Of a stretch of 64,000 nt of DNA, positions 4,323 through 17,278 are shown piece by piece. Position 1 is the first letter of the stretch, and each line of letters opens with the position of its first letter. The translations under genes were made by a program, and so were the position numbers. Source of the DNA: a virus. Taxonomy: Duplodnaviria > Caudoviricetes. The stretch spans positions 19,529 to 83,528 of IMG/VR virus record IMGVR_UViG_3300037484_000250; one strand, written 5' to 3'. The notes below the pieces were generated by a model. That model saw only the letters and a list, made by a program, of their open reading frames with translations, ran no database searches and had not been told where the DNA came from.

Positions 4323-5285
4323 TTGGAGTTTTTCGATAAAACTATTTTAATAACAGGCGGTACAGGAACTTTCGGGCAAAAATATGCAGAATGGTTATTA
4401 AAGCATGAAAAAATAAAACGAATCATAATTTTTTCGAGAGATGAATTAAAACAACATGAAATGAGGCAGAAATTAGAAGATGAAAGAATTAGGTATTTTA
4501 TAGGTGATGTAAGAGATCTAAATCGTCTTGAAAGAGCATTTAATGAGGTTGATATTGTAATTCATGGTGCAGCATTAAAGCAAGTACCATCTTGTGAATA
4601 TAATCCGTGGGAAGCAGTACAAACCAATGTATTTGGTACGCAAAATGTAATCGAAGCATCCATTAATAAAAATGTTAGTAAGTGTATTTTATTGAGTACA
4701 GACAAAAGTGTAATGGCAAGTAACACATATGGCAAAACAAAAGCGTTAGCAGAATCGCTTATAGTAAATGGAAATGCCTATGCGAGTGGGACAAAGACAA
4801 AATTTAGTTGTGTTCGCTATGGTAATGTAATTGGATCAAGAGGAAGTATAGTCCCACTCATGATAAGTCAGCGCGATAGTAATCAACAGATTACAATCAC
4901 AGATGTTCGTATGACAAGATTCTGGCTACAACCTGAACAGGCTTGCACAATAGTTTCGGAAGCGATTAAGGCGATGCATGGTGGAGAGATATTTATCCCT
5001 AAGATTCCGAGCGTTAGAATTCTTGATTTAAAAAGAGCTATAGCACCAAAGTCGAATAATAAATTTATCGGCATTCGAGAAGGGGAAAAATTGCATGAGG
5101 CCCTTATTAGTGAGCAAGAAGCCCCAATGACGATTGATGCTGGTAAATTTTTTGTTATAGAAAGTCCCCAAAATTGGTTTCAAAGAGGCAGGATCGAGGG
5201 GGAACCGTTCAAAAAAGCAAGATATGTAAGTGATGAGAATGAGGATTTCTTGAGTATCGAAGAGATTGCAAAAGGTATTTCGTAA
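4323..5285 (+). CDS. pseB: UDP-N-acetylglucosamine 4,6-dehydratase (inverting), PseB/FlaA1 family
   Basis: ITGGTGTFG, FSRDELKQ, HGAALKQVPSCEYNP, LSTDK, VRYGNVIGSRGS, MTRFW, GEKLHE. Confidence 0.9.
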   Translation: MEFFDKTILITGGTGTFGQKYAEWLLKHEKIKRIIIFSRDELKQHEMRQKLEDERIRYFIGDVRDLNRLERAFNEVDIVIHGAALKQVPSCEYNPWEAVQTNVFGTQNVIEASINKNVSKCILLSTDKSVMASNTYGKTKALAESLIVNGNAYASGTKTKFSCVRYGNVIGSRGSIVPLMISQRDSNQQITITDVRMTRFWLQPEQACTIVSEAIKAMHGGEIFIPKIPSVRILDLKRAIAPKSNNKFIGIREGEKLHEALISEQEAPMTIDAGKFFVIESPQNWFQRGRIEGEPFKKARYVSDENEDFLSIEEIAKGIS

Positions 5286-5800
5286 GCCATTACCATAGAG
5301 ATTAAAAACATTCGTGATGAGCGAACCATATATCTAGATTAAAAACATAGCGATTGAGTGAGCCAGTGGAAAGGGATAGTAACATAACACCTGAGCGAAC
5401 CAAGGTGCGTGAGAGTGCCAAACAAGTCGAGTGAACCAATGCAGTTGATCTTTTCAGATTGGAAGAGTGATCCGAAATAAGAGAAAGTAACAAGTGAGAT
5501 GAGTGAGCAATTGTATAGAGGTTTACCCAACATAGATGAGCGATCCAGAATTTGAGAGTGAATCATATCAACTGAGAGAGTCATAATGTGTGATGATAGC
5601 AAAGAAAACGAGCGAATCAATCCCCAAGAGATGACCGGATGCTTGGAGTGAGCCACAAGGGAGGAGAGTTCCAGTCCTTGCGAGTGAACCAATTGTCATG
5701 AGTGTACCCAAATAACGCGAGTGAACCAAATTATCCGAAGAAAAACAAATTCTATGAGTGAGCCATAATTATATGATTAAACATAATATTTGAGCGATCA
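5282..5800 (+). repeat. TIGR-type dual-repeat guide-RNA array 1 (orphan, 13 complete units plus a degenerate first unit)
   Basis: Edge repeat (G)AG[T/C]GA[A/G/T]CC[A/G] starts at 5320, 5357, 5394, 5430, 5466, 5502, 5539, 5575, 5611, 5647, 5683, 5720, 5757 and 5793 (36-37 nt period). Each unit has a central GA(N5-7)CA loop repeat flanked by two variable 8-9 nt spacers. Confidence 0.9.
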
Positions 5801-5836
5801 GTTATTAAATCTGACCAGAAAGAGGGAAGATAATCT

Positions 5837-6100
5837 TTGAGATTAGGAACGTTCGATATTTCGAGGACAGATATTTTAGAATCGCCGGAATTAGTAATGG
5901 CAATCACTGGGAGAATGTTGATATATAGGGCTGAAATGATGTTTCATAGGGACTCGGTAGAATATATAGCTGTATCGGATCTATTCGATGAGGTAGAACA
6001 AGGGGAATGTCCTCCTGAATATTTCATTATTGTTGAGAAGACAGAGGATGAAACATATGTTGTTTCGGCTTGTAAGAAAAAAGGGATAACATTTTCATAG
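5837..6100 (+). CDS. Hypothetical protein
   Basis: 87 aa ORF, GAGGGAAG RBS, TTG start. Confidence 0.6.
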   Translation: MRLGTFDISRTDILESPELVMAITGRMLIYRAEMMFHRDSVEYIAVSDLFDEVEQGECPPEYFIIVEKTEDETYVVSACKKKGITFS

Positions 6101-6111
6101 GAATATGTGTT

Positions 6112-15196: not shown

Positions 15197-15858
15197 TGTT
15201 CTCTAAAGAATGGGAAGAAAGGTATAGTCAGGGTATGAGTCATTCACTTTGGCCTTGGACGGATCTAATTAAATATGTAAATAGATATGGTAATTTAGTA
15301 GCTGGTGATAAGGTCTTAGAATTAGGGCCGGGTATTGGTGCGAATATCCCGTATTTCCTATCTATTGGTGTGGATTATTATGCTATCGAGGGAAGTCCTA
15401 CGGCAGTAAAAATGATCAGAGATAAATATCCAGAATTAGCGGGTAAGATTATCAATGGAGATTTTACAAAAAATATACCCTTTGATATAAAATTTAATCT
15501 AGTTATCGATAGAAGTTCATTGACACATAATGACACTGCGAGCATCATGGATTCGCTCACATTTATTTCTGATAAATTAATGCCGGAAGGGAAATTCATT
15601 GGAATTGATTGGTTTTCTTGGGAACATGGACAAAGAAGATTGGGAAGTCAAGGTCGAGATCCTTATACATTTACATTTGAACAAGGTAAATTTATCAAAT
15701 GTGGAAAGGTTCATTTTAGTACGGAGGCACATATATCTACAGTTTTCGGGGAGTCGGGATTTGAGATAGAAGTACTCGAACATAAAATAAATCAAAATAT
15801 AAAACCAAATGTGGGAAATACAGAGGCAGTATGGAATTTAGTGGCAATGTTAATATGA
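15196..15858 (+). CDS. Class I SAM-dependent methyltransferase
   Basis: VLELGPGIGAN motif I, YAIEGS, DLVIDRSSL. ATG overlaps the upstream stop. Confidence 0.85.
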   Translation: MFSKEWEERYSQGMSHSLWPWTDLIKYVNRYGNLVAGDKVLELGPGIGANIPYFLSIGVDYYAIEGSPTAVKMIRDKYPELAGKIINGDFTKNIPFDIKFNLVIDRSSLTHNDTASIMDSLTFISDKLMPEGKFIGIDWFSWEHGQRRLGSQGRDPYTFTFEQGKFIKCGKVHFSTEAHISTVFGESGFEIEVLEHKINQNIKPNVGNTEAVWNLVAMLI

Positions 15859-16572
15859 GTGATGGGAGAGAAACTTATGGGAGCGTTGGCAATTATTCCA
15901 GCAAGGGGTGGATCGAAACGTCTGATAAATAAAAATATCCAGACTATTAATGGAAAAACATTACTAGAGTATGCGATCCAGACATCGATTGATAGTGGGG
16001 TCTTCTCGGAGATTGTGGTCACTAGTGATGATCGAAGTTATCTGGAAATTGCTTCAAAATATAAAGTAGTTTTACATTTAAGACCACCTAGTTTAAGTGG
16101 TGATTTCTGTAAATTGAGGACATTGGTGAGATATCTACTAGAAATATATTATGCAGAAGGAAATGCATTCGAAAATATGGCGCTTGTTATTCCGACTTCA
16201 CCATTAAGAAATGCTAATGATTTAAGGACGGCATCAGCATTGTTGGATAAGCACCAAGACATAAATGGTGTAATGAGTGTGAGTAATTTGAGATATCCGC
16301 CAAGGCATTCACTTCGAATAAATAAAACAACGGGGTTAGTTGAACCTATGTTCCCAGAGGATATTGATACCCAGCATATGGAATTAGAGCAGGGATATAT
16401 CCATGATGGGTCTGTTATATTTGTGAGAACTAAAAAGTTCATGCAATATGAAGATTTTTATATGCCGAGTATGATGCCATATTATGTGAGTGAAGAAAGA
16501 GCGATGGATATTAATACTCAGAATGATCTAAGGATAGCAAGATTTCTGATGGGAGAGTATGGGAGGAAATAG
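15859..16572 (+). CDS. neuA: Acylneuraminate cytidylyltransferase (NeuA/PseF family)
   Basis: IIPARGGSKRLINKNI, VTSDD, LRPP, PTSPLR, DGSV, AMDINT. Confidence 0.9.
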   Translation: MMGEKLMGALAIIPARGGSKRLINKNIQTINGKTLLEYAIQTSIDSGVFSEIVVTSDDRSYLEIASKYKVVLHLRPPSLSGDFCKLRTLVRYLLEIYYAEGNAFENMALVIPTSPLRNANDLRTASALLDKHQDINGVMSVSNLRYPPRHSLRINKTTGLVEPMFPEDIDTQHMELEQGYIHDGSVIFVRTKKFMQYEDFYMPSMMPYYVSEERAMDINTQNDLRIARFLMGEYGRK

Positions 16573-16573
16573 C

Positions 16574-17278
16574 ATGGCGGATATTCTTATAATTTCAGCT
16601 CATCCGGACGATGAAGTGCTAGGTTGTGGCGGAGTAATAGCGAGATCGGTAAGAGTTGATAATCAAGATGTATACATCGCATATTTGAGTTATGGAGCAA
16701 TGGCAAGAAGACCGGGCGAAGATATGGATGATCTTGAAAAAGAAAAGATCAAAGATAGATCTAGGGCTGCGATATCGGTGTTAATGGGTGTATCGAAATC
16801 AGATATTAAAAAACATTTAAGGTTTGTAGATTTTCCAGACAATCAATTTGATACAGTACCATTCATAAATATTGTTCGTTTGATAGAAGAACTTATCGAT
16901 GAGTTACAACCGGATTGCATATTCACGCATTCCCAGAAAGATTTGAATATTGATCATGTTATAACACACAGGGCAGTATTGACGGCGACAAGACCGATGA
17001 AGGATAAGCATAGAGTATCAGCTATATATACATTTCCTATTCCGTCCAGTACGGAATGGGCATTTTCATCTTTTGGAAGTTTCTCGCCGAATGTATTCTT
17101 TGATATTGCGACATTTACTGAACTGAAAATTAGAGCATTAAAATGTTATGATACAGAGGTGAGAGCATTTCCTCATCCGAGATCGGTTGAACTTATTCAA
17201 GTGATGGCATGTTTTATGGGATCTAGTGTGGGAATGGGGTCGGCAGAGGGGTTTGAAGTTGTTAGGTGTTTGATATGA
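16574..17278 (+). CDS. PIG-L/LmbE-family deacetylase
   Basis: SAHPDDEVLGCGG, FTHS..DLNIDH, HPRS. Confidence 0.88.
   Translation: MADILIISAHPDDEVLGCGGVIARSVRVDNQDVYIAYLSYGAMARRPGEDMDDLEKEKIKDRSRAAISVLMGVSKSDIKKHLRFVDFPDNQFDTVPFINIVRLIEELIDELQPDCIFTHSQKDLNIDHVITHRAVLTATRPMKDKHRVSAIYTFPIPSSTEWAFSSFGSFSPNVFFDIATFTELKIRALKCYDTEVRAFPHPRSVELIQVMACFMGSSVGMGSAEGFEVVRCLI

Follow-up and report, generated by a model that had tools for sequence, protein, structure and literature searches.

Nonulosonate biosynthesis genes between the terminase genes of an uncultured tailed phage and a candidate sialyltransferase-fold enzyme in its head module

Sugar genes between terS and terL

The stretch of DNA analyzed here (the window) comprises 64,000 nucleotides, the last 64 kb of a tailed-phage genome recovered by metagenomics (IMG/VR virus record IMGVR_UViG_3300037484_000250; 83,528 bp, direct terminal repeats, estimated 100% complete). 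Our subject is a set of genes at 4323-17278 that resemble those for the biosynthesis of nonulosonic acids, the sialic-acid-like sugars. They lie between the gene for the small terminase (terS, 1127-1603, +; phrog_4102, E 1.5e-35, at the same position in relatives) and that for the large terminase (terL, 17523-18758, +; Terminase_6N and Terminase_6C). An earlier reading of the bare sequence, referred to below as the original prediction, had named the sugar genes of this interval. Profile annotation of each gene found all of them at the places given, on the plus strand.

The interval opens with a PseB-type inverting 4,6-dehydratase of uridine diphosphate (UDP)-N-acetylglucosamine (UDP-GlcNAc), encoded at 4323-5285 (+), and continues with a PseC-type sugar 4-aminotransferase (7856-8932, +; PF01041 (DegT), E 2.6e-109). 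Two genes of the NeuB family follow (both PF03102 plus SAF): the paralogue NeuB-1 (10320-11399, +) and NeuB-2 (11396-12436, +), a canonical nonulosonate synthase by its sequence. Next come a left-handed beta-helix (hexapeptide) acyltransferase (12378-12839, +; PF00132), a second, shortened DegT-family aminotransferase (12826-13782, +; PF01041, E 4e-48), a WbqC-family protein with a predicted ATP-dependent ligase fold (13770-14516, +; PF08889, E 7.9e-75) and a nucleotide-sugar O-methyltransferase of the CalS11/TylF type (14513-15196, +). A class I S-adenosylmethionine (SAM) methyltransferase (15160-15858, +; PF08241, PF13489, PF13649) lies directly upstream of the gene for a PseF/NeuA-type cytidine monophosphate (CMP)-nonulosonate synthetase (15859-16572, +; PF02348), and the set closes with a PIG-L/LmbE-family N-deacetylase (16559-17278, +; PF02585, E 1.2e-23). 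From 6112 to 17278, most genes abut or overlap, the exception being a gap of 20 nt before the second of two sigma factor genes.

Relatives were recovered by scanning IMG/VR with NeuB-2, the portal protein and the head-module transferase described below; they are independent contigs from different metagenomes. They form four lineages: the window's own, with 98%-identical fragments, and those of G001 (86.7 kb), G002 (88.0 kb, terminal repeats) and G003 (88.0 kb). All four share a common order, namely a regulator, terS, an Acb2/Tad1 gene, pseB, a gap of 370-620 nt and further on pseC, a sigma factor, the synthases and tailoring genes, pseF, PIG-L, terL and portal. In G003, the acyltransferase and the second aminotransferase precede the synthases and the CalS11-like gene is absent, while the class I methyltransferase is kept in every lineage. 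Amino acid identities across lineages are 50-82% for the sugar enzymes and 82-93% for the portal and capsid proteins.

Selection was estimated as the ratio of nonsynonymous to synonymous substitution rates (dN/dS). Against a close relative, the ten sugar genes in the 98%-identical block have values of 0.025-0.12, and terL has 0.085; pseB, which lies in a more diverged mosaic block, has 0.19. In comparisons with the distant lineages, synonymous sites have reached saturation, with 50-82% of the amino acids still identical. All reading frames are intact and the GC content runs across the island without a break. Conservation in four lineages together with this purifying selection argues that the sugar set is a phage feature under strong constraint, neither host contamination nor decaying cargo. 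The island is nonetheless a mosaic relative to its closest relative, L001: pseB, terS and the first sigma gene are 76-83% identical, whereas pseC, both neuB genes, wbqC, the methyltransferases and pseF reach 97-99%, a split that points to recent recombination within it. In relatives further removed, both Clostridia prophages and viral contigs with portals 47-61% identical, the DNA retrieved around the portal gene contained no pathway genes.

Searches for near-identical DNA, using the sugar cluster and the structural block, found no match among 50,697 deposited phage records, and the closest deposited phages have TerL and capsid proteins about 45-50% identical at most. Portal homologues in cellular genomes all belong to Bacillota, with 61% identity in an uncultured Peptococcaceae and 47-54% in Dethiobacter, Oscillospiraceae, Lachnospiraceae, Acetobacterium and others, and the host is therefore probably an anaerobic Gram-positive bacterium of this phylum.

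To call the island a nonulosonate cluster, as the original prediction did, is right for its sugar genes; a pure cluster it is not, being interrupted by a repeat array, a ParB-Dam gene, small open reading frames (ORFs) and two sigma factor genes. The array (5319-5765, +) is non-coding and lies just behind the pseB stop codon, in the gap that all four lineages keep. It holds 12 copies of a 10-bp motif resembling GAGYGARCCA, spaced by 18-19 bp, 36-37 bp or longer distances. The whole window has 35 such motifs against 5.3 expected. A second non-coding array of the same motif lies at 58843-60038, with all copies on the plus strand and spacings of 36-37 bp or multiples thereof.

An ORF of 87 amino acids (5837-6100, +) is found in all four lineages with a dN/dS of 0.04-0.06 and travels with the sugar genes; in G002, it is placed between the class I methyltransferase and pseF. 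Searches of families, PHROGs and the atlas gave no match for it. Next to it lies a variable insert, made of a ParB-like/Dam DNA methyltransferase gene (6112-7341, +; PF05869, phrog_111) and an ORF of 173 amino acids (7338-7859, +), which is absent from L001, G001 and G003 and partly present in L002 and G002. These two genes, a radical-SAM-like gene and an HNH endonuclease gene on the minus strand (3453-4238, between the Acb2 gene and pseB) come and go between lineages and are therefore not considered part of the pathway. The 173-residue ORF and the radical-SAM-like gene had been candidates for missing pathway steps and were rejected on account of their absence from other lineages. The HNH gene, shared by the window and G002 (70% identity), has no counterpart in L001, G001 or G003, a distribution that a mobile homing-type gene would be expected to show. 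A Cys-rich ORF of 68 amino acids (8925-9131, +), for which no family match was found, occurs in L001, L002 and G002, in the last between pseF and PIG-L.

The two tandem sigma-70-family genes (9128-9772 and 9793-10323, +; Sigma70 regions 2 and 4) are SigK/SigE-like: their best NCBIfam models are these sporulation factors, at 130 and 81 bits, under the cut-offs. Their products are 41% identical to each other. G002 and G003 have one copy only, and in every lineage the first gene stands between pseC and the synthases. The original prediction placed production late in infection; with two sigma factor genes inside the cluster, its transcription may involve more than one late promoter. A scan for promoters and terminators gave fewer sigma-70-like sites than in shuffled sequence and no convincing operon boundaries.

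Upstream of the island, a gene for an Acb2/Tad1-type hairpin protein of 67 amino acids (3235-3438; PF24729, E 7.8e-24), of a type known as an anti-CBASS/anti-Thoeris sponge, is kept directly upstream of pseB in all four lineages with 62-98% identity. At the very start of the window, we also observed a PemK/MazF-type toxin gene (2-367; E 2e-28) and, after it, a small regulator with a likeness to sigma region 4 (554-985), which relatives keep upstream of terS.

Pathway core, synthase copies and tailoring enzymes

The PseB protein of the window scores 405.6 bits on TIGR03589, just under the cut-off of 407.75, which its orthologues in G001, G002 and G003 exceed (431, 413 and 420 bits); its best solved match is H. 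pylori FlaA1/PseB (2gn4, 300 bits). PseC has TIGR03588 as its best NCBIfam model (358.6 bits, under the cut-off of 423.5). The PseF-type protein aligns over its full length with its best model, TIGR03584 (145.7 bits, under the cut-off of 205.7), and its solved matches are NeuA and CMP-N-acetylneuraminic acid (CMP-Neu5Ac) synthetases. A legionaminic front end was considered and rejected, with scores of 62.6 bits for LegB (cut-off 475) and 234.6 bits for LegC (cut-off 420), far under those of PseB and PseC. Because three orthologues of PseB pass the equivalog cut-off and the LegB and LegC models score so much lower, we assign the front end, by sequence, to the pseudaminic type.

The original prediction had recognized no PseG, PseH or NeuC, and this holds across the whole 83.5-kb genome and not just the window. 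Model searches at E <= 10 found no Epimerase_2 domain (NeuC/LegG), no PseG (TIGR03590; none in relatives G001-G003 either), no PseH of the GNAT type (TIGR03585) and no Maf-type transferase in that genome. The genome thus lacks a GNAT PseH while having a hexapeptide acyltransferase. Among 19 further viral records with such clusters, 17 are likewise without PseG and NeuC-type genes, three of these 17 being records estimated to be at least 90% complete. Lack of a UDP-release step therefore characterizes viral clusters in general and is not peculiar to this genome.

Both NeuB copies pass the Pfam cut-offs for the TIM-barrel NeuB domain (PF03102) and for the C-terminal SAF domain. On the PseI model (TIGR03586, cut-off 340), NeuB-1 scores 197 bits and NeuB-2 242 bits, and both score higher on TIGR03569, where NeuB-2 reaches 314 bits, under the cut-off. 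The best solved match of NeuB-2 is the N. meningitidis NeuB (182 bits) and that of NeuB-1 is PseI (8h2c). When aligned to N. meningitidis NeuB, from which the residue numbers are taken, NeuB-2 retains the NHNG motif and the equivalents of His215 and His236, which we take, from the published structure, to be metal ligands. NeuB-1 has Asp and Arg at these two positions and has lost the NH of NHNG, and it does so in all four lineages. The prediction of two neuB genes is thus correct as to family; only one of them is canonical.

On viral contigs, both histidines are kept in 97 of the 105 regions resembling NeuB; they are missing in this lineage and in three further contigs, each with a canonical copy as well. 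The substitutions of NeuB-1 recur in 48 of the 120 database homologues listed, the other 72 being canonical; the histidine-less homologues include proteins on Phycisphaerales contigs of up to 635 kb and on an untitled contig of 1.3 Mb. With a dN/dS of 0.07, NeuB-1 appears to belong to a coherent and unstudied NeuB subfamily that is under selection and also occurs in bacteria. The two classes of KDO8P synthase suggest an analogy, in which NeuB-1 could be a synthase independent of metal; alternatively, it could be an enzyme with another role. Several other viral contigs carry two or three NeuB paralogues.

The remaining genes would tailor the sugar. The hexapeptide acyltransferase, whose true start is probably a few codons downstream of the annotated one, has a weak match to NeuD/PglB/VioB as well as matches to O-acetyltransferases. 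The second DegT-family aminotransferase has a deletion of about 20-25 residues relative to PseC; its catalytic Lys, which forms the Schiff base, is kept in the window and in G001 and is replaced by Arg in G003 (L013:2341-3300). As G003 also lacks the CalS11-like gene, the decoration may differ between lineages. The enzyme that had been described as TylF-like is, over its full length, a homologue of CalS11, a thymidine diphosphate (TDP)-rhamnose 3'-O-methyltransferase (E 9.2e-60; PF05711, 24.5 bits), which points to O-methylation at the nucleotide-sugar stage.

The WbqC-family protein was modeled by AlphaFold with a predicted local distance difference test score (pLDDT) of 90.6. Structural alignment by VIA-align placed it nearest to BshC (4wbd; Z 12.8 over 227 of 248 residues), followed by class I lysyl-tRNA synthetase (LysRS; Z 11.9), glutamyl-tRNA synthetase (GluRS; Z 8-9) and MshC (Z 7.2). 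An atlas search with WbqC returned its own family only, and we found no functional study of WbqC in the literature searched. The PIG-L protein scores 84.5 bits on PF02585 (cut-off 28.2); its best NCBIfam models are BshB1/BshB2 at about 52 bits (BshB1 52.6 against a cut-off of 182.5), under the cut-offs. PIG-L co-occurs with WbqC in 11 of 14 viral loci that bear WbqC. Given the BshC-like predicted fold, the preference of PIG-L for BshB models and this co-occurrence, we propose that the two proteins resemble the deacetylase-ligase pairs of bacillithiol and mycothiol synthesis (BshB/BshC and MshB/MshC). Known nonulosonates carry acetimidoyl, N-methyl-glutamyl or alanyl groups, which would fit this proposal. 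The list of such groups is supported in part by PMC13317340.

The same combination of genes recurs outside these lineages. A NeuB-2-like gene, a hexapeptide transferase and WbqC are adjacent in three unrelated viral contigs (L141, L142 and L165; 167, 72 and 47 kb), which also hold PIG-L, pseB and pseC, the module being at 35-55% identity. The last of them has in addition a class I methyltransferase and a copy of the NeuB-1 type without the metal-binding histidines.

Candidate transferase and destination of the sugar

The sugar cluster itself holds no transferase. A candidate, encoded about 11 kb downstream of 17278, is a CstII-like protein of GT42 fold (28707-29612, +) whose gene sits in the head module, after that of the capsid (25810-26793) and before those of the connector and tail. 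Its AlphaFold model, built on 38 homologues, has a pLDDT of 82.6. A Foldseek search of PDB with this model gave 16 matches at E <= 0.001, all of them GT42 enzymes (CstII, CstI and Pasteurella sialyltransferases) with probability 1.00; for the 12 of the 16 that are shown, E ranges from 2.8e-6 to 5.9e-4 and the template modeling (TM) score from 0.39 to 0.54. The gene is kept with the pathway in all four lineages. NeuB, PseF and transferase genes also stand in a row in unrelated viral contigs (L005, L162, L172, L205/206 and L210).

Directly preceding the transferase gene, after that of the capsid, are two ORFs (26889-27275 and 27320-28621, +) whose products are candidate acceptors. Their Ser plus Thr contents of 28.1% and 29.3% are the two highest among 66 ORFs of the window (median 10.4%), and comparable ORFs flank the transferase gene in the relatives and in unrelated viral contigs. 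Position in the head module, Ser/Thr-rich neighbors, retention in four lineages and linkage to neuB and pseF elsewhere together favor O-glycosylation of head-associated proteins as the use of the sugar, which we infer to be the best supported one.

Elsewhere in the head module, a protein of 485 amino acids (21846-23303) is an unusual fusion of a uracil-DNA-glycosylase-superfamily domain (residues 191-311) with an XkdF-type prohead serine protease domain (366-477).

Our preferred reading, which we hold to be somewhat better than an even bet as a whole, is that a functional pathway owned by the phage makes a decorated CMP-nonulosonate and that the CstII-like transferase puts this sugar on the Ser/Thr-rich head proteins. 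Its parts differ in strength. That the phage has a working nonulosonate pathway we consider highly probable, and the phage-made, CMP-activated and tailored donor put forward by the original prediction is well supported by family assignments, synteny in four lineages and selection. That the virion is the target of the sugar is favored by a narrower measure.

The product would be a CMP-activated 5,7-diamino-tetradeoxy-nonulosonate, with a pseudaminic-type front end and non-standard N-acyl and methyl decorations. Judged by family membership, PseB would dehydrate and invert UDP-GlcNAc, PseC would add the 4-amino group, NeuB-2 would condense the freed hexose with phosphoenolpyruvate and the PseF/NeuA-like enzyme would form the CMP-sugar. 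Release of UDP, the PseG step, would come from a host enzyme or from an unrecognized phage protein. More loosely, the hexapeptide transferase may carry out N-acylation in place of the GNAT PseH; PIG-L may remove an N-acetyl group, after which the BshC-like WbqC would use ATP to attach an acyl, aminoacyl or amidino group to the amine; the CalS11-like enzyme may O-methylate at the nucleotide-sugar stage and the class I methyltransferase may add a second methyl group. NeuB-1 would act as a metal-independent synthase or have another role. Timing of expression is probably the task of the embedded SigK/SigE-like sigma factors.

A bolder hypothesis can be formulated, to which we give tentative credence at most. 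Tailed phages of several unrelated lineages may possess an undescribed and self-contained system of "viral sialylation", in which a pathway without PseG or NeuC has its gap filled by the histidine-less NeuB or another protein, the PIG-L/WbqC pair builds a new N-aminoacyl or amidino methylated nonulosonate, and a virus-specific CstII-fold enzyme places it on Ser/Thr-rich head fibers under SigK/SigE-like control. In that case, the particle would gain an acidic coat that alters its encounters with mucus, surfaces, and the receptors or defenses of the host.

Several observations weigh against the preferred reading. The case for it is built wholly from homology, gene order and selection. On paper the pathway has gaps, with PseG, PseH and NeuC absent and neither NeuB reaching the equivalog cut-off of PseI or NeuB. 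The transferase resembles GT42 at the level of predicted fold only: Pfam CST-I (PF06002) aligns with no more than 29 residues, at 16.7 bits (cut-off 25), and a sequence search of PDB with this protein gave no match, so that its donor and its acceptor are guesses. Its Ser/Thr-rich neighbors have no family match, and their placement in the virion comes from gene position only. As for WbqC, a Foldseek search of PDB with its model returned no significant match (nothing below E 0.09), and a profile search of PDB sequences gave no link to BshC, only a marginal match to a universal stress protein. Finally, the phage may be temperate or plasmid-like, which would also fit a modification of the host surface.

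Host-surface modification is indeed the strongest competitor, and we consider it unlikely yet worth serious attention. The CMP-nonulosonate would be used on flagellin, the S-layer, a cell-wall polymer or the spore surface, for superinfection exclusion or lysogenic conversion, with transfer by the CstII-like enzyme or by a Maf-type enzyme of the host. A host that makes pseudaminic acid would naturally supply the missing PseG step, and the host is probably a member of Bacillota, the portal relatives being prophages in Clostridia genomes. Nonulosonates decorate flagellin in many Clostridium species, whose clusters have methyltransferases beside pseF (PMC13317340). The SigK/SigE-like sigma factors resemble regulators of spore-surface genes, and phage sigma factors of such kind are known to alter sporulation (PMC9429907). 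However, the sole candidate transferase is phage-specific and lies between capsid and connector genes, beside Ser/Thr-rich proteins, an arrangement found in four lineages and in unrelated viruses. Furthermore, the phage genome has no Maf-type gene, and the cluster is in the packaging and structural block, not beside lysogeny genes.

Distinctly less probable is that the genes are an auxiliary metabolic set that boosts or redirects the nonulosonate pool of the host (for instance, by draining UDP-GlcNAc or changing a receptor). The phage would then have no dedicated acceptor of its own, and the gene in the head module would encode something other than a nonulosonate transferase. With the UDP-releasing step absent, the pathway may depend on host enzymes; the same absence in 17 of the 19 other viral records is in line with the partial pathways typical of auxiliary metabolic genes; and the GT42 assignment comes from fold similarity only. 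On the other hand, at least 11 tailoring and activation genes, including a CMP-sugar synthetase, are under strong selection, which is hard to explain without a specific transfer step, and a transferase-like gene repeatedly stands beside neuB and pseF in unrelated viruses.

We regard it as very improbable that phage DNA receives the sugar, as a hypermodification that would block host nucleases. The island does have a ParB-like protein, the ParB-Dam methyltransferase, the anti-defense Acb2/Tad1 gene and the HNH endonuclease, but these DNA-directed neighbors vary between lineages while the sugar genes are constant, the candidate transferase is among head proteins beside Ser/Thr-rich ORFs, and neither a DNA glycosyltransferase nor a base-hydroxymethylating enzyme was seen among the annotated genes.

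The least credible alternative, a host genomic island misassembled into the phage (one of the cases that the original prediction had named as refuting it) or recent decaying cargo, would suit a metagenome-derived record whose single enzymes have their closest cellular homologues at 46-63% identity, but it is contradicted by the junctions terS-Acb2-pseB and PIG-L-terL, which are the same in independent contigs of four lineages, by the intact frames and purifying selection (dN/dS 0.03-0.12 in the 98%-identical block; pseB 0.19) and by the even GC content, and we rejected it.

Prevalence and relation to known systems

In bacteria, nonulosonic acids are familiar chiefly as glycans of virulence and motility; in animals, as cell-surface sugars. 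A NeuB alignment search found NeuB-like genes on at least 391 stretches of IMG/VR viral contigs, many of them with pseB, pseC, PIG-L, wbqC or pseF. The corresponding number among the 50,697 deposited phage records is three, one of which is a bacterial contig. The trait is therefore common in uncultured viruses and almost unseen in studied phages. In the literature searched, we came across no tailed phage described as having a nonulosonate pathway; most subscription journals lay outside this search and prior work is possible. A paper on the phylogeny of nonulosonate synthases makes no mention of viruses.

The system is also of interest for enzymology: UDP would be released without PseG or NeuC, the histidine-less NeuB subfamily may have a function of its own and the widespread WbqC may be the ligase partner of PIG-L deacetylases. 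The embedded sigma genes may drive the cluster, the late genes or the sporulation genes of the host.

The closest biochemical counterpart is the CMP-pseudaminic acid pathway of H. pylori and C. jejuni (PseB, PseC, PseH, PseG, PseI and PseF). The phage has PseB-, PseC-, NeuB-family- and PseF-type enzymes, and each core enzyme has a Pse model as its best or near-best NCBIfam match. It differs in lacking PseG and the GNAT PseH, in its extra tailoring genes and in the location of the set between terS and terL. Moreover, both phage synthases score higher on the NeuB/LegI model than on that of PseI, under the cut-offs, and one is without the metal ligands.

In its gene content, the island also resembles the flagellar glycosylation islands of Clostridium and Campylobacter. 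There, a protein of the WbqC family, PtmG, acts together with the methyltransferase PtmH. These bacterial islands combine Pse or Leg genes with tailoring of the PtmG/PtmH type and Maf (PMC13317340); as in the phage, the core genes are accompanied by methyltransferases, one directly upstream of pseF, and the probable host of the phage is of the same phylum, Bacillota. Unlike them, the phage has neither Maf genes nor flagellin, has instead a candidate of GT42-like fold and keeps its genes in a structural-module context.

With CstII, CstI and the Pasteurella sialyltransferases (CAZy GT42; PDB 1ro7, 2p56 and 9c08), the protein encoded at 28707-29612 shares its predicted fold, for which they are the sole significant match, and the phage gene is linked in the genome to genes for CMP-nonulosonate synthesis. 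Sequence identity is 16-21%, the CST-I score is under the threshold and the phage protein has a long C-terminal helix; its presumed acceptor is protein Ser/Thr, in contrast to lipooligosaccharide. The phage transferase family has about 140 members, none of them annotated.

The likeness to BshB/BshC and MshB/MshC, where a deacetylase and then an ATP-dependent ligase act on a 2-amino sugar, lies in the best models of PIG-L (BshB1/BshB2) and in the predicted fold of WbqC, nearest to BshC and also similar to MshC. WbqC, however, has 248 residues against about 540 in BshC, shows no similarity to it at the sequence level and presumably acts on a nonulosonate precursor.

Phage genes acting on pseudaminic and legionaminic acids are known from Acinetobacter baumannii, as prophage genes for nonulosonate tailoring by 8-epimerization (epaA/epaB; PMC12053666) and as phage O-acetyltransferases (PMC6586298). 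Those are one or two enzymes modifying the host capsule, whereas the phage described here has a biosynthetic pathway with an activation step and a candidate transferase.

Virus-encoded virion glycosylation offers the last comparison. Mycobacteriophages encode transferases and use sugar donors of the host. Their virion glycosylation is attributed, in a passage of PMC13477221, to Freeman et al. 2023, and giant viruses encode glycan biosynthesis for virion decoration (PMC9614988). In these systems, sugar-nucleotide enzymes, glycosyltransferases or both are encoded by the virus and the products are found on capsid-associated proteins, and the phage described here would be alike in this. The review of giant-virus glycans makes no mention of pseudaminic, legionaminic or sialic acid (PMC9614988), and what sets the tailed phage apart is its near-complete nonulosonate pathway. 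If our reading is true, an acidic host-like sugar coat could alter adsorption, stability, adherence and recognition of the phage, and virus-encoded glycosylation, so far known for giant viruses and for mycobacteriophages using host donors, would extend to sialic-acid-like sugars. On this reading, a tailed phage would unite a nonulosonate pathway of bacterial type with virion glycosylation encoded by the virus.

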